Below are positions 9,173 through 58,962 of a stretch of DNA of 64,000 nt, in pieces. This DNA is from Candidatus Bathyarchaeota archaeon (GTDB lineage: Archaea > Thermoproteota > Bathyarchaeia > 40CM-2-53-6): assembly GCA_005883075.1 (NCBI GenBank), contig VBAX01000047.1, positions 29,598-93,597 on the forward strand. The letters run 5' to 3'. The notes below the pieces were generated by a model. The model did not search any database. It had not been told where the DNA came from and worked only from the letters and a program-made list of their open reading frames with translations. Every line of letters begins with the position of its first letter. Positions within the stretch are counted from its first letter, which is position 1. Position numbers and translations under genes: made by a program.

Positions 9173-10570
9173 TCAGCGACCTAGATTGAATTCTTCGTGA
9201 ATTGCCCTCACTGCTTCCGGGCCATCCTTGTGTGATACCACGAAGGATACGTTGTACTCGGAGGACCCCTGCGCGACCATACGGACATTCGCCTTTCGTT
9301 TCGCGACCGCCGTAAATATCCTAGCAGCCACTCCCGGCGTCCCTTTCATCCCAGATCCAACAACAGCAATAATGCAGGCATCTTTCTCCTCGGATATTCT
9401 ATCCACGTATCCCTGTCCCATCAGCGCCAATTGAAGAGCCCTGACGGCGCGGTCAACGTCTCTGTTCGCAACAACGCAGGATATCGTGGCTTCAGAAGAG
9501 CCTTGAGATATCATCATCACGTTGACGTTGTTTGAACCGAGTGTCTGGAAGACTTTTGCAGCGACTCCGGGAGCTCCCATCATTCCACTACCACTTACCG
9601 TCACGATGCCTACGTCCCTGATGATCGAAACCGCCTTCACCACTTTGCCTCCATTACTGGATTCGCTAGCGGAAACAAGAGTTCCATTCCGCGCTGGTCT
9701 AGAAGAGTTCTTTATTCGGACCGGGATTTTCTTTTGTCCAGCCGGTTGCAGTGCCCTAGGGTGCATCATTTTTGCACCGAAATAGGATAGTTCTAGTGCC
9801 TCTCCGAACGAAATGTATGGGAGAAGAGTCGCGTTCTTTACGATTCGAGGGTCAGCCGTCATCAGCCCGTCCACGTCAGTCCATATCCATATCTCGTCTG
9901 CTCCCAACGCGGCGGCCAGTAAGGTCGCGGTGTAATCAGATCCTCCTCGTCCGAGGGTCGTGATGCTTCCATCAACTGTAGCGGCGATGAACCCCGTTAC
10001 AACCGGAATTACTCGGCGACTCCATAACGGGTCCAGCCGTTGGCGAACCTGCTGGTAACTGATCTCCACCAGGGGCTTTGCCTCTCCGAAATTATCATCT
10101 GTTGTAATACCCGCTTCAGAGCCCGTCAGTGTCCTTGTCCGTAGGCCCAAGGCTGATATCGTCGCTGCAAGAATCGGTGTAGAAAGTCGCTCGCCGAAGG
10201 ACAGAAGATAGTCGCGGCTTCGAGATGTTAATTCTCTGAGGTGTACTATTCCTTCCACTGTTCGCTCAAGTTCGGAGTTTAGCTGGTCCAATCTCGATAC
10301 GAGGTCCCGGGTTCCTCCTCTACCGGAAACTATCCGTGCTATCTTGAGATGGTAAGCCTGAATCTTGCTGAGGAGTTTTCTCGCCTGCTTTAGATTCCCC
10401 TTCTTGGCGAGTTCGGCGATCTCGACGAGTTGATCTGTTGTCTCTCCAATCGCGGAGGCGACTACAACAATCTTGTTCCTGGGAGAGTGTTGCTGGATTA
10501 TTAGCGCCGCGTTTTTCACTCTGGGCGCGTTCGCCAGGGATGTGCCTCCGAACTTCATCACGAGCTTCAA
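9173..10570 (-). CDS. lysC: aspartate kinase
   Basis: Begins MKFGGTSLAN. Aspartokinase fold with C-terminal ACT domains. Last gene of the thr operon. Confidence 0.9.
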   Translation of the reverse strand: MKLVMKFGGTSLANAPRVKNAALIIQQHSPRNKIVVVASAIGETTDQLVEIAELAKKGNLKQARKLLSKIQAYHLKIARIVSGRGGTRDLVSRLDQLNSELERTVEGIVHLRELTSRSRDYLLSFGERLSTPILAATISALGLRTRTLTGSEAGITTDDNFGEAKPLVEISYQQVRQRLDPLWSRRVIPVVTGFIAATVDGSITTLGRGGSDYTATLLAAALGADEIWIWTDVDGLMTADPRIVKNATLLPYISFGEALELSYFGAKMMHPRALQPAGQKKIPVRIKNSSRPARNGTLVSASESSNGGKVVKAVSIIRDVGIVTVSGSGMMGAPGVAAKVFQTLGSNNVNVMMISQGSSEATISCVVANRDVDRAVRALQLALMGQGYVDRISEEKDACIIAVVGSGMKGTPGVAARIFTAVAKRKANVRMVAQGSSEYNVSFVVSHKDGPEAVRAIHEEFNLGR

Positions 10571-10580
10571 TCTTGACCCT

Positions 10581-11597
10581 CTATGTAGCGTATTCTTGGC
10601 GTATGCTGACTAGGTCTCGAACTATTGCACTAGCCGTTCTTTCGCCTCCGGCGCCGGGCCCGATGAGAGTTATGTCGCCAGCGTGTTCTGTCGTGAATGT
10701 GAGCGCGTTCAGGGTATCTGGGACACATGTTGGGTCAGCCATAGGGATCTGTTCGGGAGCTACTGAGGCTGAAGACTCTTCGATCCTGCCGATGAGTTTG
10801 ACTTTGGCGTTTGATGCTTTGGCCTGCTTGAGTTTCTGCGGTGTGATTTTAGTGATGCCCGTAATGTCTAGGTCTCGAAGACTGTACCGTTTTTTCAGAA
10901 CCCAGTTTGCGATTATTACGATCTTCGCGGCGGTATCGAATCCTTCGACATCATTTGTAGGATCCTTTTCCGCATACCCTTTCCTTTGCGCCTCTGCCAG
11001 CGCTTTCTCGAATGTTAGGGAGGCAGTTTCCATTCTAGTAAGGATGTAATTTGTCGTTCCGTTGAGGATGCCTCTAACTCGTATGATTCGTTCTCCAGGC
11101 ATGCATTTCGCGGCAAAATCCAGGAATGGTGTTCCCCCACCTACTGTTCCGCTAAAACGAAGCTGTCGGTTGCGGTGATTGGCTAGCTCGAGCAGCGCGG
11201 GCATCGCTAGTGCCAGAGGGCCCTTGTTCGCTGTGACAACGTGCTTTCCGTTGGCGAGCGCAGCTTTGATATTGGAGAGCCCGGGTTCTGCGTCTTTGAA
11301 GTTGGTGGGCGTTGTTTCAACAACAACCTCCGCTTCACTGTTAGTGATGATGTGAGCGCTATCATTGTTCCGGCGGCCCTTTCTGGGATACCTGGCTACC
11401 GTTCCATATTCCTTCTTAGTTTTCAGGACTAGCGAGATGTCGAGGCCTGCGTCGTCGGAGCAGGATCCTTGGCTGTCAACTATGGTGGTGATTTGGGGCC
11501 GGAAGCCGTAGGCTTGGGTGATTCGGTCTGCGTCTTGGTGTAGAACCTGGGCGAGCGCTTGCCCGACAGTTCCGAAGCCGGCCAGTATGATTCTCAA
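10581..11597 (-). CDS. hom: homoserine dehydrogenase
   Basis: N-terminal ILAGFGTVGQ Rossmann motif. Positioned between thrC and ask. Confidence 0.85.
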   Translation of the reverse strand: MRIILAGFGTVGQALAQVLHQDADRITQAYGFRPQITTIVDSQGSCSDDAGLDISLVLKTKKEYGTVARYPRKGRRNNDSAHIITNSEAEVVVETTPTNFKDAEPGLSNIKAALANGKHVVTANKGPLALAMPALLELANHRNRQLRFSGTVGGGTPFLDFAAKCMPGERIIRVRGILNGTTNYILTRMETASLTFEKALAEAQRKGYAEKDPTNDVEGFDTAAKIVIIANWVLKKRYSLRDLDITGITKITPQKLKQAKASNAKVKLIGRIEESSASVAPEQIPMADPTCVPDTLNALTFTTEHAGDITLIGPGAGGERTASAIVRDLVSIRQEYAT

Positions 11598-12823
11598 AGG
11601 GCCCGCTCGATGTTGTCTATACTAGTTTGGTCGCTAGTTTCGAGACTGTAACCAGTCTGGGATTTGGGTAAGCGGTTCAGAATCGAGGGGTCTTTCAGAC
11701 CATGGCCTGTCGTCACGCACACGATGGTTTCCGATGGGTCGACCCTCCTGTTCGTCTTGAGCTTCTTTAGTCCCGCGATGGAGGCTGCGCTTGCTGGTTC
11801 TACAAAAATTCCCTCGAGGGTTGCAAGTTGTCTTTGAGCCTCGAGGATTTCAGAATCGGTTACAGTTTCGGCAGTTCCCTTCGATTCTTTTATGGCCTTG
11901 AGGACTTTTGGCCAGTTTACTGGAGATCCTATCCTGATTGCGGTCGCGATTGTTTGCGGATTGTGAACTGGGCGAATCTTGTTCTCTCTTCTTTTCACAG
12001 CTTTCGCGATCGGTGAGGCCTTCTCTGCCTGAATCCCGATCATTCGGGGCCTCGTCTTTGCGATCGATAGTTGTTGGAACTCGGTGAAGCCTTTCCAAGC
12101 GGCGCTGATGTTGCCTCCATTTCCGACAGGCAGTATTACAGTGTCGGGTGTTTTCGAGTCAAGCTGGTCAGAGATCTCGAAGGCAAGGGTCTTTTGTCCT
12201 TCGAGTCTGTATGGGTTGAGGGAATTCATCAAGTAGAGTTCTCTCCTCCGTTTCGTTAGTTCCAGAGCTGTTACGAAGGCTTGATCAAAGTCTCCCTTGA
12301 CCTGAATTATCTTGGCTCCGTGCATTGTAACTTGGAGCATCTTGCCACCTGCGACCTTTCCCTTCGGGACGAGGACTATGCATTCCATGCCCGCTCGTGC
12401 CGAGTAAGCAGCTAGGGAAGCCGCCGTGTTCCCGGTTGACGCGCAGAGAACTTTCTTTTTTCCGAGCTCCTTCGCTTTTGAGATTGCAACTGTCATTCCT
12501 CGGTCTTTGAAAGAGCCAGTTGGGTTTTCACCTTCGTTCTTGACATAGAGTTTCTGGAGGCCGAGTTCGCGTCCAAGGCGCCTGCACCTATGGAGCCCTG
12601 TTCCTCCTTCAGCGAGGCTCACAATAGATTCTTCATTTTCGATGGGGAGGATCTCTCTGTACTTCCACACTGAGAGTTGTCTGTGGTCCCAAGCTGGTTT
12701 CTTCTTTCCCTTGAGATCGAACTTTACTTCTAGTAGTCCACCGCAGATCGTGCACCGGAAATCGGCTTCACTGGCCGCGGGTTCTCTTTGACAGTCGAAG
12801 CACTGGAGCTTGTGGCGCAACAA
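11594..12823 (-). CDS. thrC: threonine synthase
   Basis: PLP Lys motif FKDRG. N-terminal CxxC...CxxC zinc ribbon as in archaeal ThrC. Confidence 0.85.
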   Translation of the reverse strand: MLRHKLQCFDCQREPAASEADFRCTICGGLLEVKFDLKGKKKPAWDHRQLSVWKYREILPIENEESIVSLAEGGTGLHRCRRLGRELGLQKLYVKNEGENPTGSFKDRGMTVAISKAKELGKKKVLCASTGNTAASLAAYSARAGMECIVLVPKGKVAGGKMLQVTMHGAKIIQVKGDFDQAFVTALELTKRRRELYLMNSLNPYRLEGQKTLAFEISDQLDSKTPDTVILPVGNGGNISAAWKGFTEFQQLSIAKTRPRMIGIQAEKASPIAKAVKRRENKIRPVHNPQTIATAIRIGSPVNWPKVLKAIKESKGTAETVTDSEILEAQRQLATLEGIFVEPASAASIAGLKKLKTNRRVDPSETIVCVTTGHGLKDPSILNRLPKSQTGYSLETSDQTSIDNIERAL

Positions 12824-12828
12824 TTGGA

Positions 12829-13779
12829 CTAGTTGCCCCTGATGATGCGGGCTCCGCCGGCCGGGCTGGTTACGAAGAAAGTGGAGTCAATGTTGTTCTT
12901 CGAGAATTCTTTCACCATTACTCTTCCGATCTTCTTGGGGTCCTGCTTGGTTTTGTCGACGAATGCAACTACACTGGGACCTGCGCCGCTGATCGCGACT
13001 CCGCTTGCGTGTGCGCTAAGTGCTGCTTTCTTGACCATTTTGTAGCCCGGGACAAGTTTCTCTCTTCGGGGTTCTGCAATTGCATCTTCCATTCCGCTCC
13101 CGATCAGTTCGATATCTCCTCTTGCAAAGCCCAGGGCGATGGCTGATGCTCGTCCGATATTGAGAACCGCCTCCTTGACCCCGATTGTCTTCGGAACCAA
13201 CTTCCTAGAGAGGCTTGTTTTGTTCTTTGGAAGCCGAATATTCGGGGAGACGACAACAACGGAAAGCTTGGCTGGCGCTCTTGTGGAGATGGTTCTCAAA
13301 GGGTCCCCGTATGCTATTACGAATCCCCCGAGCAAGGATGCGCTTACGTTGTCAGTGTGGGCTGACCCTGAAGAAGCGGCCTCTCCGAGACTGGCAATCT
13401 TGACCAATTCATCGGGGGGAAGATGGAGCTCTAGGAGGTGGTTAATTGCCTGCGTGCATGCTGCAGCCGTTGCGCCGCTGCTGCCAAGACCTAGACCGGG
13501 CGGAATGTTCTTCTCGATAGTTATCTCGACACCGTTGTCCAGTCTGCTCCTACCAAGTAATGCTCGGGCTGGGGGACCAGCAGAATTCTTGTCGGGGGAA
13601 ATCGGCAGCCCCCTGCCGTAGGGTCCTAGGATCATGATCTTGACAATTCGTGTTCTTGAAGTTTTGACCTGAACTCGGTCGGCATATTTGCCGAGTGCTA
13701 ATCCGAAAGTGTCGAATCCGGCTCCAAGATTGGCCGTGGAACAGTACGCCTCGACCCTCACCGCTTTGTCAGGGATCAA
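12829..13779 (-). CDS. thrB: homoserine kinase (GHMP kinase)
   Basis: GHMP motif PPGLGLGSSGATAAA. First gene of the thrB-thrC-hom-ask operon. Confidence 0.8.
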   Translation of the reverse strand: MIPDKAVRVEAYCSTANLGAGFDTFGLALGKYADRVQVKTSRTRIVKIMILGPYGRGLPISPDKNSAGPPARALLGRSRLDNGVEITIEKNIPPGLGLGSSGATAAACTQAINHLLELHLPPDELVKIASLGEAASSGSAHTDNVSASLLGGFVIAYGDPLRTISTRAPAKLSVVVVSPNIRLPKNKTSLSRKLVPKTIGVKEAVLNIGRASAIALGFARGDIELIGSGMEDAIAEPRREKLVPGYKMVKKAALSAHASGVAISGAGPSVVAFVDKTKQDPKKIGRVMVKEFSKNNIDSTFFVTSPAGGARIIRGN

Positions 13780-13872
13780 CGGTCGAATTTCTCAACTGAG
13801 ACTCCGCCTTTCGTTCGATAATAACTGGCCTCGTACCAATGTCTCAATTTCGGCCGACAGGGAAAGCTTTCA

Positions 13873-14082
13873 GAATCGCCCATTATCAGCCCTGAACTCG
13901 ATTCTGGAAACCCCCTATGAACTCTCCCGAGATTCGTTCGGAATTGTCGTCTTCTTTCCATTCTGATCCCAGCCTAAATCCTGCCCTGAATCGTGTGACT
14001 CGCCCAGAATTAGTGCCAGACAGGAAGTCGTTTCCAGAAAATAGGGGGTCTTAGCGACCGACCCTCGCGTCGCAAGAGCGGC
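13873..14082 (+). repeat. copy A of a 4-copy, ~215-bp non-coding intergenic repeat family (candidate ncRNA or MITE)
   Basis: Aligns over its full length with 29626-29842 in the same orientation and with 47166-47384 and 58719-58930 as reverse complements. Conserved blocks are GCCCTGAAT, CTCGCC, CCAGACAG.AA.TC.TTC, AAAATAGGGGGTC and CGCG.CGCAAG. Confidence 0.8.
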
Positions 14083-14274
14083 GAAACTGATAAGCCCCAG
14101 AATTGGTTTAGGTATGTCATTCGTGGTCATGACCAATAGACCATTTTCGTGACACATAACTGTGTACTTCTCCGAATCTCGTTTCGTAGCGAAGGCTTAC
14201 GTTTCAGCCAAGCTCGCACGGTTCTAAGCACGAAACTACAGTATACCCAACCATTCGTTTTTTCTTGCAGACGC

Positions 14275-22585: not shown

Positions 22586-24625
22586 TCACATTGGATGTAT
22601 GTGGGACTCAGCACATGAGGCTGGGAAGGAACCGGTGGCAACGGGGGAGAAAACTTCAATCCGGTTGTTGCTCGTTCCACTGGAGGTTCCTGTATCGACC
22701 ACGTAGACATTCCCTGAACTGTCCACGGCCAGCCCGTTCGGATTCACGAGCTGGCCATTTGCAGACCCCATCATCCCGAAGGATGTGAGAAACGTGCCGT
22801 TGCTGGCGAACTCTTGGACTCGGTTATTGAAAGTGTCGGCCACGTAGACATTCCCAGCTGAGTCTAGGGCTAAGTGTCCAGGGACATTGAACTGCCCATT
22901 TCCGGGACCGGAAGATCCCCAGGAGATGAGGAATCCTCCCGAGCTGTTGAATTTCTCGATACGATTGTTCGATGAGTCGCTTACATACACGTTGCCTGAG
23001 GCGTCTACAACGATGCCAGTTGGATTGCTGAACTGGCCGTTAGCGGTCCCCAACGACCCCCAAGTCATGATGAAGTTTCCTAAACTGTCAAACTTTTGCA
23101 CTCGATTGCCCGAGTAATCTGTAACGTAGACGTTGTTTGAACTGTCTGTTGCGACACCGTATGGACCGTTGAACTGCCCGTTGCCCAATCCAAAGGATCC
23201 CCATGCTCTAGTGAAAGTACCGTTCGGAAGGAATTTTTCAATTCGGTTATTGGAATAATCTGAAACATAGACGCTACCACTGTGGTCGACGGCAACTCCA
23301 AAAGGACCGTCGAGCTGGCCGGCTGCATTCCCAGTCGCTCCCCACGCCAATAGGAAAGTTCCAGATGTGGAGAACACTTGTATTCGATTATTTAGTTCGT
23401 CAACAACATAGACGCGGCCCGAACTGTCCACGGCTCCATCATAAGGACTAGAGAACAGTCCGAATCTTGGATATGTGAGACTTGAAATGTACGATCCTGT
23501 GCTAGCTGAGAATTTCTGAACTCTAAAGTTGTTTGAATCACCAACATACAGGTTCTGCAGAGAATCAACGGCTACCCCAACCGGGTTGTTGAACTGTCCA
23601 GGCAATCCGCCCGGAGAGCCCCACATCAAGATGAGGTTGCCGGTCGTAGTGTCGAACCTTTCCACATCATTCCGCAGGTTGTCGGTGACATAGATGTTGG
23701 ATGCGTTGTCGACTGCCATCATCGCCGGTGCCGCAAGGCTGCCCCCGAAATTCAGCCCTCCCCACGTTAGGACAAGACTGCCCGTCTTGGTAAATTTAGT
23801 AATATTGTTCGACTTGGTGGCGCTGTCGCTCACGTATACGAATCCTGACGAATCCACCGCTATTCCATACGGACTCAGGAATTTGCCTTGACTCGTACCA
23901 AGCCCGCCGAAAGATCCAACGTATGTTCCATTATTCCTGAATATCTGAACACGTTGGTTTCCTTGATCTACCACGTATACGAAGCCGGTAGCGTTAACGC
24001 TAACCCCGAGCGGGGTCTTGAATTGGCCATTTCCGGACCCAGTCGAGCCCCATGAGGTGATGAAGTTCCCGGAAGAATCGAACTTCTGAATGTTGTTATT
24101 CACTGAATCAGAAACGTACACGTTTCCTTGGGGGTCCCGAGCGATTCCTTGTGGGGTGTTGAACCGTCCTGGCCCGGTCCCTTGGGATCCCCATGTGGTT
24201 ACGAGCGATCCATCCCTTGCTAGTTTGTAAACCGCGTAGTTCTTTGCATCGGCGATGAAGATGTTGCCTGCAGAATCTACTGCAACCCCGTTGGGGGCTA
24301 AGGGTCCCCCATACCCGCCCCATTGCCGAGAGTAGACAAAGGAGTTGGTTCCAGCAACCGTAGCCTGGGTTCGGCCTCCCGCTACCCCGGCCAGCACCAT
24401 GGTCCCCTGAGTGATTATCAGAATCGTCACGGAAAGGGACAACACAAAAAGAATCATAGACCGGAGGAAAATCGGCCTTTTTTCCGTATTAACTGCGCTA
24501 GAACGAGACGCGTAGTTCACTCGCGAATTGGGACGACGTTGTGAAGAGGAGTCCTTTCTGCCAGGCCAGAGCTCTGGGTTGGTCGGGGTTCCCCTCTGTG
24601 CAAAGGTCATGAGGAGAAGAAGCAT
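22586..24625 (-). CDS. NHL-repeat beta-propeller protein (about 13 repeats) with N-terminal signal anchor
   Basis: About 13 tandem 45-47-aa repeats of the form NNRIQKFxxxGxFxxxWGSxGxGNGQFxxPxGxAVDxxGNVYVxD. Likely real start at MILFVLSLSV (about 24460), a signal anchor. Confidence 0.85.
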   Translation of the reverse strand: MLLLLMTFAQRGTPTNPELWPGRKDSSSQRRPNSRVNYASRSSAVNTEKRPIFLRSMILFVLSLSVTILIITQGTMVLAGVAGGRTQATVAGTNSFVYSRQWGGYGGPLAPNGVAVDSAGNIFIADAKNYAVYKLARDGSLVTTWGSQGTGPGRFNTPQGIARDPQGNVYVSDSVNNNIQKFDSSGNFITSWGSTGSGNGQFKTPLGVSVNATGFVYVVDQGNQRVQIFRNNGTYVGSFGGLGTSQGKFLSPYGIAVDSSGFVYVSDSATKSNNITKFTKTGSLVLTWGGLNFGGSLAAPAMMAVDNASNIYVTDNLRNDVERFDTTTGNLILMWGSPGGLPGQFNNPVGVAVDSLQNLYVGDSNNFRVQKFSASTGSYISSLTYPRFGLFSSPYDGAVDSSGRVYVVDELNNRIQVFSTSGTFLLAWGATGNAAGQLDGPFGVAVDHSGSVYVSDYSNNRIEKFLPNGTFTRAWGSFGLGNGQFNGPYGVATDSSNNVYVTDYSGNRVQKFDSLGNFIMTWGSLGTANGQFSNPTGIVVDASGNVYVSDSSNNRIEKFNSSGGFLISWGSSGPGNGQFNVPGHLALDSAGNVYVADTFNNRVQEFASNGTFLTSFGMMGSANGQLVNPNGLAVDSSGNVYVVDTGTSSGTSNNRIEVFSPVATGSFPASCAESHIHPM

Positions 24626-29592: not shown

Positions 29593-29625
29593 GTCGCACC
29601 TTAATCGGGTTCCTTTCTAGCTTCT

Positions 29626-29842
29626 AAGCCCAAAGAGAAGCCAGATCGGGAATCTGGGACACCGTCAAATTCTCGCCTCCAAATTGTTCAGGAACTGACC
29701 TAAATTACACGTTAACTCGCTCTTTGATCAAAGCCCAAACCCTGCCCTGAATCGCAATATTCGCCCATTACCAATGCCAGACAGAAAATCTTCCCATCAA
29801 AAAATAGGGGGGTATTGCACAGAACATCTCACGACGCAAGTC
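29626..29842 (+). repeat. copy B of the ~215-bp intergenic repeat family
   Basis: Homologous to 13873-14082 in the same orientation. Lies between the convergent stops of the nitroreductase (+) and DUF35 (-) genes. Confidence 0.8.
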
Positions 29843-29845
29843 CGG

Positions 29846-30607
29846 CTATCCAGAGAGAGTGTCGCCAGGCTCGGTTTCAGAAGAGCTCTTAACCGCTTTC
29901 CGCCATTCTCTCGCCTTGTCCCCAAGCCTGCGAAGCAGCTTATCCTCTTCACGAGTGAGAAGTTCGCCTTTGCCAATCTTACTTCTTAGCGAGGATATCG
30001 TCATCTCATCCTCCTCTACCGGATATCCTGACTCTTCGATAGAATGGAGAAGCGACCTCGCCTGGTCATCCACCTTTCCCACATTCTGTCTCTCCGCTCT
30101 TCCACCCTCTACGGTTATCTTGCTTGGCACGGTTGAGATCGGTTTGAATGCGAGAATATCCGTGATAGCGCCTGTACGTTCTCCCAGGTTCTTGAGAGAT
30201 GGCGCTACTTTCATTCCGATCGATACGCTATCAGGATCCTCCGCAGCAAGCAAGTGGATTATTCCTCCCTTGACGCCTTCAAACTTCACGAGGCCCACTG
30301 TTACGGGCGAGTCGGTGTCAGAACCTGATCTGTTCCTATTGACACAAGTGAAACTGTAGACATAACCTGGCTTGTCGATTGGAAACTGGTCTTTCATCTC
30401 GATGAAACAGTCGGGGCAGTACATTCTGGCCGGAATGTAAGTGCTCTTGCACTTTGAGCATTTCGAGACTAGAAAGCGACCGTTATCCCGGAGTTCACGT
30501 CGAAACTCCTCCCCTGCAACCCCTGCAGTGTAGTGGTATTCCAGAGGTATGCTGTCCGTCCAGTGCCGAGCTTGACCGGGTTGAGCGAGTTTCTCTAAAA
30601 TTGGCAT
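29846..30607 (-). CDS. DUF35 OB-fold/zinc-ribbon protein with an about 90-aa charged C-terminal extension
   Basis: CSKCKS...CPDC rubredoxin-like ribbon followed by an OB fold. Extra C-terminal tail rich in E/K/R. Confidence 0.7.
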   Translation of the reverse strand: MPILEKLAQPGQARHWTDSIPLEYHYTAGVAGEEFRRELRDNGRFLVSKCSKCKSTYIPARMYCPDCFIEMKDQFPIDKPGYVYSFTCVNRNRSGSDTDSPVTVGLVKFEGVKGGIIHLLAAEDPDSVSIGMKVAPSLKNLGERTGAITDILAFKPISTVPSKITVEGGRAERQNVGKVDDQARSLLHSIEESGYPVEEDEMTISSLRSKIGKGELLTREEDKLLRRLGDKAREWRKAVKSSSETEPGDTLSG

Positions 30608-46683: not shown

Positions 46684-47165
46684 AAAACGTTAAGGCAACG
46701 TTTCTTGGTCCGTTTTCACATCTTCGCGTCCTCCTCGACGGAGTAGGTACTCCGAGAAACAAGTCACTTCGAGGCTGAGGCTCTGGTAACGACCAGCAAA
46801 TTGCCGGACTATGTCTGTCTTGTATGGAATACTAAGGGCAGGGATGCGGGGACTTGGCGACCTGGGAAGAACCTAGAGAACTGGACACTGACAATGAGGC
46901 TGTGATCAGCCTCTACGACGGCATCAAGAAAATACTGGAAAAACAGCCGAAGCCCAAGTCCAAGCCAAGCTCTGGCATCCCGAGAGAAGCAAGACACATC
47001 TTACGTTGCGGTCGAATCCTCAAGGTCGATATCGAACGGAAACTCATCGTTATTACTGTCATGAAAACGGACGGCGAGCTTCACCAGCTTCGAATAGAAG
47101 CCAACCAAGACTAACCGAACACCGGATCGGATCTAGGGATACTTTCGGAATACTCCGTTTCTCCC

Positions 47166-47384
47166 TCTCTTGTGACGCGAGGGTCGGTCGCTAAGACCCC
47201 CTATTTTCTAGAAAAGATTTCCTGTCTGGCATAGATAATCGGCGAGTCTCGCGATTCAGGGCACGATCCGGGCTTAGATGTGATCGCAAAAAACGGGAAG
47301 TCTAGCGCCATTCCCGAACGATTCAGGGGGCGAGATAGGGGTGTGGTCCCAGATTCGGGATCAGGGCTGATTTTGGGCGATCCA
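47166..47384 (-). repeat. copy C of the ~215-bp intergenic repeat family (reverse orientation)
   Basis: Its reverse complement aligns with 13873-14082, and the 3' half is nearly identical. Located downstream of the stop of the mutase gene. Confidence 0.8.
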
Positions 47385-47410
47385 AGACGCATAATTCCCT
47401 CTAGGTAACG

Positions 47411-48991
47411 TCACACGTCGCGCCTTACCCGGTATTCTCCGAAGGCGTCTCTTAGAACTTCGCTGATTTCACCGACGGTGCAGTTTGCCCGGACGGCGCT
47501 TAAGATGCGATTCACGAGATTCTCTTCGTGCTTCGCAGAACTGGAAAGGCGTCCAAGAGCATTTTTGACCAGCGCAGTATTTCTCGTTCCTTTCATCATC
47601 TTCAGCTGTCTTATCTGATCTCTCTCGAGCTTGGGGTCGATGCGCTGGATTTTTGGTCCACTGCTTCCCTCGGTAAACTTGTTGACTCCGACAATAATCG
47701 TTCGTCCTTCGTCAACAGATTTCTGGAACCTGTAAGCGCTTTCCTGTATCTCGCGATGGACAAATCCGGATTCTATCGCCTTTCTCGCGCCACCTAAATC
47801 TTCCACTTTCTCTAAGAGACGAGTCGCGTCGGCCTCAAGATCTCTTGTCAAGGATTCCAGATAGTAGCTACCGGCTAGTGGATCCGCCGTTTTGGTCACT
47901 CCTGATTCGTGGGCAATTATCTGCTGGGTACGCAAGGCAATTTGAACCGACTCTTCGGTTGGCAGAGAGAGTGCCTCGTCCCTGGAATTTGTATGCAGAG
48001 ATTGTGTTCCACCGAGAACTCCTGCAAGGGCTTGGATTGCGACCCGGACAATGTTGTTGTCAGGCTGTTGGGCGGTCAAAGTCTCACCACTTGTCTGGGT
48101 GTGAAATCGTAGCTTGCAGGATTCAGGATCCCGGGCTTTGAAACGGTCCTTCATGATCCGGGCCCAGATTCTACGCGCAGCTCTGAATTTCGCGATCTCC
48201 TCCAAGAAATCATTCCTGCAGGCAAAGAAGAAAGAAAGTTGGGGGGCGAACTGGTCTATCTTGAGCCCTCGTTCAAGAGCCGCCTTAACGTATTCGATCG
48301 CGTTTGCAAAACAAAAGCCTAGTTCCTGGATCGCGTTCGCGCCCGACTCGCGAATATGATAGCCACTGATGCTGATCGGGTGCCACCGGGGCATCTTGTA
48401 GGCGCAGTATTCTATGAGATCGACGGAGAGCTTTAGCGATGATTCTGGAGGATAGATGTAGGTATTCCTTGCGATGTACTCCTTCAGAATATCATTCTGT
48501 GTCGTTCCCGTTAACTTGTTCTGAGGGACCCCCTGTTCCATTCCAACCGCGACGTAGAGAGAAAGCAGGATTGGTGCGGTGGCGTTGATTGTCATGCTAG
48601 TGCTGACCTTTCCAAGGTCGATGCCCTCGAAGAGACGCCTCATGTCATAGACGCTACTTATTGCAACTCCCACTCTCCCAACTTCTCCAGCAGCCCTTGG
48701 ATAGTCTGAGTCGAGACCGAGCTGTGTTGGCAGGTCGAATGCTGTGCTGAGCCCGGTCTCACCGTGAGATATCAGATACTTGAAGCGGCGATTAGTTTCT
48801 TTGGCAGACCCGAAACCCGTGTATTGACGCATGGTCCAAAGCCGATCCCGATACATTCCATCGTAGATCCCACGCGTGTATGGGAACTGGCCCGGTTTCC
48901 CCAGTGACCTTGTCCAGTTCGGTGGAACATCCTTTTTCTCGTAGATTTTTTTGACGAGGATCCCAGAGTCTGTTGTTACAGGGTCGGTCAA
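47411..48991 (-). CDS. mcmA: methylmalonyl-CoA mutase, catalytic (large) subunit lacking the B12-binding domain
   Basis: MCM TIM-barrel with RQYTGFG (Tyr) and RNTYIYPP (Arg) signature residues. 526 aa, so no C-terminal B12 domain. Confidence 0.9.
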   Translation of the reverse strand: MTDPVTTDSGILVKKIYEKKDVPPNWTRSLGKPGQFPYTRGIYDGMYRDRLWTMRQYTGFGSAKETNRRFKYLISHGETGLSTAFDLPTQLGLDSDYPRAAGEVGRVGVAISSVYDMRRLFEGIDLGKVSTSMTINATAPILLSLYVAVGMEQGVPQNKLTGTTQNDILKEYIARNTYIYPPESSLKLSVDLIEYCAYKMPRWHPISISGYHIRESGANAIQELGFCFANAIEYVKAALERGLKIDQFAPQLSFFFACRNDFLEEIAKFRAARRIWARIMKDRFKARDPESCKLRFHTQTSGETLTAQQPDNNIVRVAIQALAGVLGGTQSLHTNSRDEALSLPTEESVQIALRTQQIIAHESGVTKTADPLAGSYYLESLTRDLEADATRLLEKVEDLGGARKAIESGFVHREIQESAYRFQKSVDEGRTIIVGVNKFTEGSSGPKIQRIDPKLERDQIRQLKMMKGTRNTALVKNALGRLSSSAKHEENLVNRILSAVRANCTVGEISEVLRDAFGEYRVRRDV

Positions 48992-53062: not shown

Positions 53063-53693
53063 TGCAGAACGAGTTCCCCGGTGCAAGCGGGACGCCACAT
53101 GAACGACATTTCGCCATTGCAGCAGCCACCACCGGTGCTTGTCCCGGTGCTGAGGGGGAAGGGTTGTACTGGAGGGTTGGTTGTGCCGCCGGAGCGTACT
53201 GAGTCTGTGATTGAAGGGTGGGAGAGTACCTTAGTGTCGGTTGAGTGTTCATCGCGGGCATGGAGGTTGGGACCATTCCCTTGCCGAAGAAGACTTTGAC
53301 GTGAGATCTGGTGAGATAGATGATCATGATGAGCCAGAAGACTAACGCGTAGCCTGCTTGGTACAGTCCGGTAAACGCGGCGTAGGCTGCGCCGAGGATC
53401 GAGAGCACCGTGAAGATCATTCCAAGGGTCCACGCCCAACCTCTTCCATGGAGAAAGCCGACCCCGGTCGCCAGCCATACGAGGCTGAAGAAGAGAAAGA
53501 CTCCACCGATAACGATCCCGACGGTACCGATCAGGGTTCCAACCGTGGGAAGAGTGGAGAATATGGCAGCCAAGCCGATGATAGCAAGGCTGACTAGAAG
53601 TCCAAGGACACCGATTAGGATCTGAATTATCGCGAGAAGTGTAATGCCGATTGGCCGGGAGGGCTTCTGCATCATGGAAAATCGAGTCTTCAC
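53040..53693 (-). CDS. membrane protein with C-terminal Q/P-rich linker and zinc ribbon (paralog 1 of 3)
   Basis: 4 TM helices, the shared HVKVFFGKG motif, and a C-terminal CRSCGVPLAPGNSFCTSCG. Confidence 0.55.
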   Translation of the reverse strand: MKTRFSMMQKPSRPIGITLLAIIQILIGVLGLLVSLAIIGLAAIFSTLPTVGTLIGTVGIVIGGVFLFFSLVWLATGVGFLHGRGWAWTLGMIFTVLSILGAAYAAFTGLYQAGYALVFWLIMIIYLTRSHVKVFFGKGMVPTSMPAMNTQPTLRYSPTLQSQTQYAPAAQPTLQYNPSPSAPGQAPVVAAAMAKCRSCGVPLAPGNSFCTSCGAKQ

Positions 53694-53810: not shown

Positions 53811-54344
53811 CTAGGGTGTCGAGGAACCCGTTCCTGGCACAGTAGAGCGTAATGCCATCGGGGTTCCCTTACCGAAGAAGACTTTGACGTGCGGTCTCAT
53901 TAGATAGTAGATTATCAGTAGCGAGATTATCAAAGAGAGGATACTACCGTAATTGCCACCAACCATCTGAAATACGTCGAGAACTATTCCAATGACACTC
54001 ACTATGATCCCTAGATTCCACGCCCATCTCTTTCCACCCAAGAACCCAACTCCGACGGCTAGATAGAGGATTCCTAGAATCAAGATTGCCGCGCCGAGGG
54101 CGATTATTAATGCCGATATGGTTCCTACGCCGAGCGAGGCCAGTCCGGGATAGCCAGCATTTGTTATAGCGTTTGTAATGTCAATAGAAGCGGATAGCGT
54201 ACCAAGGAGGAGTCCAAGTCCAATGAGCACTGCTCCGCTAAACAGAAACGCTATTGCTCCTAGAATTGCTAACACGGCGAGAACTGTTACACCGGTTGGT
54301 CGCGGTGGTTTCGGCTGCATGGTTGTTAGATACTCGCTCCGCAA
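53811..54344 (-). CDS. membrane protein paralog (2 of 3)
   Basis: Shares GKRWAWNLG...YYLMRPHVKVFFGKG with paralog 1. Likely start at MQPKPPRP. Confidence 0.55.
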   Translation of the reverse strand: MRSEYLTTMQPKPPRPTGVTVLAVLAILGAIAFLFSGAVLIGLGLLLGTLSASIDITNAITNAGYPGLASLGVGTISALIIALGAAILILGILYLAVGVGFLGGKRWAWNLGIIVSVIGIVLDVFQMVGGNYGSILSLIISLLIIYYLMRPHVKVFFGKGTPMALRSTVPGTGSSTP

Positions 54345-58688: not shown

Positions 58689-58718
58689 ACCGCGGGCTCT
58701 TGAGCCTCCAGAGGGAAA

Positions 58719-58930
58719 CCGCTCTTGCGTCGCGAGGTGCGCTGTGCAAGACCCCCCCTTTTAGAGGAGAAAATTTTCTGTCTGGTAGTGATTATGGGCG
58801 AGACGGGCTATTCAGGGCTCAGACCAGGCTTGGATCAGGTGACGTTTTTACGAGTCGTCAAGAAGGATTTGCTATGCAATTAAGCGGACTGTCTACAGAT
58901 TCGAGATCAGGGCTTGAAATGGGCGAATCC
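58719..58930 (-). repeat. copy D of the ~215-bp intergenic repeat family (reverse orientation)
   Basis: Its reverse complement aligns with copies A and B. Lies between the convergent stops of the monooxygenase (+) and surface-protein (-) genes. Confidence 0.8.
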
Positions 58931-58962
58931 ACGGCTAGAAGCGCGTCGCATGTTGGATTGTC

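Follow-up and report, generated by a model that had tools for sequence, protein, structure and literature searches.

In the 64-kb stretch of Bathyarchaeia DNA analysed here (the window), positions 47167-47383 of the minus strand hold a repeat, copy C, which belongs to a family of 225-245-nt elements and extends over 47150-47391 in an nhmmer search. On one side lies a methylmalonyl-CoA mutase gene (47411-48991, minus strand; Pfam E = 2.5e-216), whose stop codon is 27 nt before the element; the sequence-only reading had rightly placed the repeat downstream of this gene. On the other side, a gene of 86 aa (46854-47114, plus strand) runs convergently with the mutase gene and forms the flank of the element rather than a part of it. 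Two small open reading frames here had been taken as probably spurious, a judgement that stood for one of them only. The frame at 47201-47392 (minus strand, 63 aa) falls within copy C; in 12 of the 13 other copies it is closed after 14-25 codons, and indels between copies are not multiples of three; we therefore rejected a coding element, the frame not being conserved. The frame at 46854-47114, on the other hand, is a conserved gene: products of 86-89 aa are called in three other lineages, with 90-95% amino acid identity against ~77-90% at the DNA level, and the protein has no Pfam match.

The remainder of the window is ordinary chromosome, encoding two methylmalonyl-CoA mutases with MeaB, a mevalonate-kinase-like and a FAD_binding_3-family protein, the Lhr helicase, thiolases and transporters. 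Among the large reading frames scanned in the window, none had a Pfam match to a transposase or integrase, the Pfam-assignable ones being metabolic or housekeeping, and neither the window nor the fetched loci contained an autonomous partner or transposase. There is no tRNA and no Rfam family in the window. Orthologues come from entries labelled Bathyarchaeota, Bathyarchaeia or 'Crenarchaeota archaeon 13_1_40CM', apparently from soil metagenomes. Of note, contigs with close mutase orthologues are mostly 2-7 kb long, and assemblies might break at the adjoining repeat. The window also contains two repeats of other kinds: an NHL-repeat beta-propeller gene (22586-24625, minus strand) with six diverged DNA repeats at multiples of 141 nt, and a 63-nt direct repeat (53276-53338 and 53864-53926; 79% identical, 588 nt apart) in adjacent small paralogue-like genes, in whose counterpart region related loci carry annotated Zn-ribbon/DUF6114 proteins.

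A family of dispersed intergenic copies

Three further copies share the window with copy C. Copy A (13866-14094, plus strand) lies between two minus-strand genes, one for a 251-aa Zn-ribbon protein and the other mevalonate-kinase-like. Copy B (29613-29853, plus strand) fills the spacer between a nitroreductase gene and a convergent ChsH2-like gene, and copy D (58713-58936, minus strand) the one between the gene of an MG2-like surface protein and a convergent gene of the FAD_binding_3 family (geranylgeranyl-reductase-like). The four copies are 11-18 kb apart. A profile built from them found only those four matches in the window (nhmmer, E = 1e-62 to 3e-73), and a further 13 copies were gathered from related Bathyarchaeia contigs (loci designated by L numbers), giving 17 in the alignment.

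That copy C is a reverse-complement copy of A, as had been proposed, was confirmed by a window-wide repeat search, in which inverted arms at 13952-14081 and 47164-47293 (130 nt) were 81% complementary and were tied to 29725-29810 and 58752-58837. Two exact occurrences of the 29-mer CTTAGCGACCGACCCTCGCGTCRCAAGAG, and no more, exist in the window, at 14050-14078 (plus) and 47167-47195 (minus). Identity between C and A is 76% over the whole element and reaches 95% in the 3' module, in keeping with the near-identity claimed for it. Nor is the similarity confined to low-complexity stretches: the GC content of the repeat equals the window mean (0.52), and the E-values given above are those of the four window copies.

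The reach of the family in sequence collections is harder to read. Our pattern for the genome and metagenome collections had 12 unspecified bases between TCGCC and CCAGACAG, a gap that measures 11 nt in the window copies and carries a 1-nt insertion in L001/L003 and L002_C1; only the insertion variants could match, and the few matches obtained are thus no measure of the rarity, range or copy number of the family. An 11-base pattern found no match in the viral collection, plasmid and phage databases held no match to the repeat, and a literature search returned no paper on dispersed repeats in Bathyarchaeia.

Every one of the 17 copies is intergenic, and most lie between convergent genes. The spacers filled by B, C and D measure 253, 296 and 274 nt, most other convergent spacers in the window being shorter than 35 nt, and most convergent junctions in the window are without a copy. 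In B, C, D, L001 and L002 the repeat starts 6-36 nt past a co-oriented stop codon. We rejected the rule that a copy always follows a co-oriented gene, since it is trivial at convergent junctions and the informative cases are split: copy A is antisense to both neighbours, and the L001 copy follows a HerA-like gene in the sense orientation.

Anatomy of the unit

Read on the element strand, the unit (~230-245 nt) consists of a 5' module, a variable middle, a core box, an A-run with G5, a 3' module and a short tail. The 5' module has the consensus (G)GAATCGCCCATTATCAGCCCTGAtCtCGAATCTGGGA and reads GGATCGCCCAAAATCAGCCCTGATCCCGAATCTGGGAC in copy C (47346-47383, minus strand); it is the best conserved end of the family. 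The middle spans ~80-95 nt and contains a degenerate CCC..RAWTCGTTCGG box and a subfamily-specific insertion of 10-12 nt. The core box follows the consensus GCCCTGAATCG-N6-TCGCCCAttATCAnTGCCAGACAGGAAAT and is represented in copy C by GCCCTGAATCG-N6-TCGCC-N11-CCAGACAGGAAAT (47218-47263, minus strand). Two types of 3' module exist, type I (TCTTAGCGACCGACCCTCGCGTCGCAAGAG; A, C and L002_C2 among others) and type II (TaTTGCACAGnnCAyCTCrCGACGCAAGAG; B, D and L002_C1 among others). That of copy C (TCTTAGCGACCGACCCTCGCGTCACAAGAG; 47167-47196, minus strand) is of type I and shares 97% identity with L002_C2 and 95% with copy A. The tail (47115-47166, minus strand) arrived with the element; L002 and L026 have it too, and it is missing at the empty site of L027/L028. 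Across the alignment, the 5' and 3' modules have unrelated sequences. In tandem arrays, units follow each other head-to-tail at 230-249 nt, with no foreign spacer between them.

Copy C had been credited with three GATTC(A/G)GGG motifs. Two are exact, namely GATTCAGGG at 47253-47261 and again at 47320-47328 (plus strand; CCCTGAATC on the element strand for the latter); the third, GATTCGGGA at 47353-47361 (plus strand), matches GATTCRGGG at eight of nine positions and is part of a split CCCTGAnCnCGAATC box. The motif occurs seven times in the window against 1.69 expected, and four of these sites (13984, 29745, 47253 and 47320) lie inside repeat copies. Compared over the 17 copies, the sub-motifs keep their positions in part, and their sequence with degeneracy: the one at 47253 opens the core box, which is nearly invariant, as is the CCCTGAAT preceding that box, while the middle one (CCC..RAWTCGTTCGG) is degenerate in other copies and the 5' one is split (CCCTGAnCnCGAATC). 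The internal modularity suggested from these motifs is borne out by a broader bias, in that GCCC, TCGCC, GAATC and CCTGA are enriched four- to sevenfold on one strand only. GCCC reaches 18/kb in the repeat against 3.3/kb in the window, with its complement at 0.5/kb; TCGCC reaches 9.7/kb against 1.4/kb, and GAATC 9.2/kb against 1.5/kb. Besides, TCGCCCATTATCA occurs twice per unit in direct orientation. An internal duplication of a half-unit was weakly supported, by short box repeats only (z = 0.3-4.6), and was set aside; the same applies to a likeness of TTTCCAGAAAATAGGGGG in copy A to archaeal origin-recognition boxes, the TCCAG part of which is not conserved in other copies.

The ends of the unit do not resemble each other. 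In none of the four window copies did a search for inverted repeats reveal a terminal pair running end to end, and no common 5' flanking tetranucleotide or 4-5-nt target was seen among the collected copies. Copy A can form a 5' stem (GAATCG/CGATTC, with an A-T to T-A swap in copy D) and a 3' stem (GCGAC/GTCGC), and folding as single-stranded DNA gave z = -2.4 for its 5' end and z = -1.6 to -2.1 for the 3' modules of A, D and L018_B1. Copies C, B, L021_B1 and L018_B2 do not form such end hairpins, copy C lacking the 3' stem of A because a single G-to-A difference breaks it. The terminal hairpins proposed from copy A paired no better than column shuffles and are unsupported across copies.

Mosaic copies and variable sites

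Resemblance between copies does not track their position in the genome. Copy A is 90% identical to L002_C2, which sits at site C, and 82% to L021_B2 at site B, whereas its positional orthologues reach only 65-67%. Copy D shares 90% of its 5' module with the positional orthologue L014_D and 43% of its middle, and copies at one site can have just the first ~30 nt in common. Those at site B share a site-specific 5' start (GCCCAAAAT...), and their middles and 3' modules come from different subfamilies. Among the four orthologues at site A, identity is 87% in the 5' module, 79% in the 3' module and 50% in the middle, with unique spacers at 45-60%. Taken together, these comparisons indicate that copies exchange segments. 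A repeat that propagates and recombines usually shows just this combination of conserved ends, a free interior and segment swapping.

Copy C itself is a chimera, as comparison with L002 shows, of the two tandem units that this relative carries at site C. In its 5' part and middle, copy C is of the type of the first L002 unit, which its left flank and middle insertion match, and from about the A-run on, the copy is 97% identical to the second, tail included, up to where the neighbouring gene has its stop codon. Approached from both sides, the blastn alignments overlap at 47197-47268, a stretch likely to contain the crossover region. Unequal recombination between two tandem units would be expected to leave such a pattern, and the simplest history would have a two-unit array, as in L002, collapse in this way in the window lineage. 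The single A-like unit at site C in L026 points to the second unit as the older resident; loss of the first unit in L026 is an equally parsimonious alternative.

Occupancy varies from site to site. Site C has one unit in the window, two in tandem in L002 (flanks ~90% identical) and one in L026, and is empty in L027/L028, where 37 nt separate the stop codons. At site D, the window, ten near-identical strains and L014/L015 carry a copy, and L016 and L017 have none, their stop codons there being 15 nt apart. In the assembly GCA_035935655.1, L017 and L026 are parts of one contig, on which C is filled and D is empty, while in the window both hold a copy. L018, L021 and L023 have copies at sites A and B alike, the number of units at site B being one in the window, one plus a stub in L023, two in L021 and two plus a truncated third in L018. 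In L016, L022, L024, L025 and L027, which add up to ~92 kb, the search detected no copy. An absence of the family from outgroups does not follow, given that L026, which carries a copy at site C, shares its genome with the copy-free L017. As the compared lineages are roughly equidistant (81-86% nt), a difference between filled and empty sites may be read as gain or loss either way. On either reading, repeat sites are dispensable and turn over independently. No target-site duplication was evident at the filled and empty sites C and D, where the flanks, from lineages at about 80%, are too diverged for base-exact junctions.

Some further features were noted around sites A and B. The truncated third unit of L018 (19133-19160) consists of a 5' module only and abuts the stop codon of a 121-aa Zn-ribbon reading frame; a more decayed stub occupies the matching position in L023. 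Between copy A and the gene of the 251-aa Zn-ribbon protein (window ~14105-14205), a non-coding block of ~85 nt is 88% identical across four lineages (counterparts at 2722-2832 in L021, 3108-3218 in L023 and 3160-3270 in L018), the adjacent spacer being at ~45%. It has no Rfam match at E <= 10 and a weak three-hairpin consensus on the minus strand, and may be an unrecognised small RNA or regulatory site. Another conserved block (GAGACTC...TCGATAATAACTGGYCTCGTAC; window 13798-13836, L018 2848-2890) lies upstream of the mevalonate-kinase-like gene and is kept in L018-L020 though that gene is not adjacent there. A segment of 4.6 kb (window 9178-13797) is missing at that position (L018 ~2848) in L018, L019 and L020, where the spacer and copy A come immediately after a GTPase gene; the segment comprises an aspartate kinase gene, two genes whose L021/L023 counterparts have homoserine-dehydrogenase and PALP domains, and the mevalonate-kinase-like gene. 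The synteny break of L018 at site A was considered as an element boundary and discarded, since the break is actually ~70 nt to the left.

Nature of the repeat and its relation to known elements

We favour, at a probability of roughly 60%, the interpretation that the family is a lineage-restricted, non-coding, non-autonomous and recombining interspersed repeat in a clade of apparently soil-dwelling Bathyarchaeia, one that behaves like selfish DNA; the sequence-only reading had put forward no nature or mechanism. Original dispersal would have been the work of an enzyme acting in trans, upkeep and reshuffling would now proceed mostly through homologous recombination (gene conversion and unequal crossing-over), and copies would survive where they are harmless, mainly at the 3' ends of genes. 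As far as we can infer, no benefit to the host is demonstrated for the family, though the conservation of the end modules in place could equally reflect a host function, e.g. as a protein-binding platform or terminator.

Such a function is the substance of a competing explanation that we consider unlikely, in which the repeat is a cis-acting module of the host whose direct boxes (TCGCCCATTATCA twice, GCCCTGAATC two to three times) are bound by a lineage-specific protein, and which serves as a spacer, insulator or two-way terminator. The one-sided distribution of GCCC and TCGCC and the recurrence of short boxes at fixed positions are in line with it, as is the conservation of the end modules in positional orthologues (79-87%, against 45-60% in neighbouring spacers). 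T-rich tracts on both strands, mid-element in the sense and TATTTTCT in the antisense direction, also speak for it, yet they are not conserved columns. The sites are dispensable, matching gene pairs in relatives having spacers of 15 or 37 nt; besides, a copy is missing from most convergent junctions in the window, no functional theme unites the flanking genes, and the number of units per site varies from one to two or more. Still more tentatively, the family might represent an undescribed archaeal mode of moving DNA, which would operate without inverted repeats or duplication and place copies head-to-tail beside residents, with recombination thereafter, or else a domesticated platform of strand-specific boxes for a lineage-specific protein at convergent gene ends.

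It seems improbable that the copies are small non-coding RNA genes or RNA elements of 3' untranslated regions, transcribed from or through the repeat. The defined strand asymmetry and the start shortly past co-oriented stop codons would fit transcripts, and the AT-rich ATTATCA boxes could conceivably be weak TATA-like elements. Yet convergent junctions make the orientation rule trivial, both neighbours of copy A run antisense to it, and evolution in the middle of the unit resembles that of neutral spacer. A structured RNA was, moreover, rejected on thermodynamic and comparative grounds: copy C folded no better than shuffles on either strand (z = +0.69 and +0.35), RNAalifold gave -7.5 kcal/mol for eight copies and -4.1 kcal/mol for 14, compensatory changes being all but absent, and no Rfam family matched the repeat at the gathering threshold or at E <= 10.

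Derivation from an IS200/IS605-type element (single-strand, HUH/Y1), non-autonomous and placing new copies head-to-tail 5' of residents, is in our view quite improbable. The asymmetric ends without inverted repeats or evident duplication, the head-to-tail arrays and the near-end hairpins of some copies would be expected of it. Asymmetric ends that lack inverted repeats and duplication are also a feature of PATE elements, which derive from IS200/IS605, are common in archaea and have conserved subterminal hairpins and a fixed 5' target sequence. The present repeat departs from PATEs in both latter respects: hairpins are not conserved, being absent from C, B, L021_B1 and L018_B2, with pairing no better than shuffles, and copies share no 4-5-nt target on their 5' side. 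Nor was a TnpA or TnpB gene seen in the window. Chance similarity or low-complexity sequence can practically be discounted, given nhmmer E-values of 1e-48 to 1e-73 across the family copies, a 29-mer for which none of 100 shuffles produced a match, and a normal base composition.

Considered more broadly, the repeat behaves like the general class of non-autonomous intergenic repeats that includes MITEs, REP/BIME, BOX and ERIC elements. MITEs are known from archaea and bacteria, e.g. the SM-type elements of Sulfolobus and those of Haloquadratum. Like them, the family is short, non-coding, multi-copy (17 copies) and intergenic, falls into subfamilies with conserved ends and a variable interior, has filled and empty sites (C and D being polymorphic independently of each other) and carries no transposase of its own; unlike them, it lacks terminal inverted repeats and an evident target-site duplication, and no parent insertion sequence could be identified in the window or the fetched loci. 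Since inverted repeats, an evident duplication, conserved end hairpins and a common 5' target are all lacking, the repeat falls outside the definitions of both MITEs and IS200/IS605 derivatives. The REPs of enterobacteria, associated with RAYT transposases, are palindromes of 20-40 nt in alternating orientation. Our family resembles REP/BIME arrangements in its extragenic location at 3' ends and convergent junctions, its tandem clusters with variable unit number and its mosaic of modules, but differs in its archaeal host and in a unit of 230-245 nt that is arrayed head-to-tail and has no conserved palindrome. The BOX elements (boxA-boxB-boxC) and ERIC elements of bacteria are likewise modular intergenic units of ~100-300 nt, in which the end modules are conserved and the middle varies; they form stable stem-loops and have inverted ends, whereas no stem-loop fold is supported for the Bathyarchaeia repeat. 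With integron attC sites and the VCRs of Vibrio it has in common a repeat placed directly after a reading frame, but there is no cassette array, no nearby integrase and no conserved hairpin, and the neighbours are housekeeping genes in conserved order.

In summary, the present work describes a new family of a known general kind, an ordinary object in a little-studied lineage of archaea. Bathyarchaeia are abundant and uncultured, and in their genomes a dispersed repeat of 230 nt may break metagenome assemblies and may drive local rearrangement, while it provides presence/absence markers at the level of strains. If a specific enzyme or regulator does recognise the end modules, the family would offer a route to an archaeal recombinase or DNA-binding protein not yet described.
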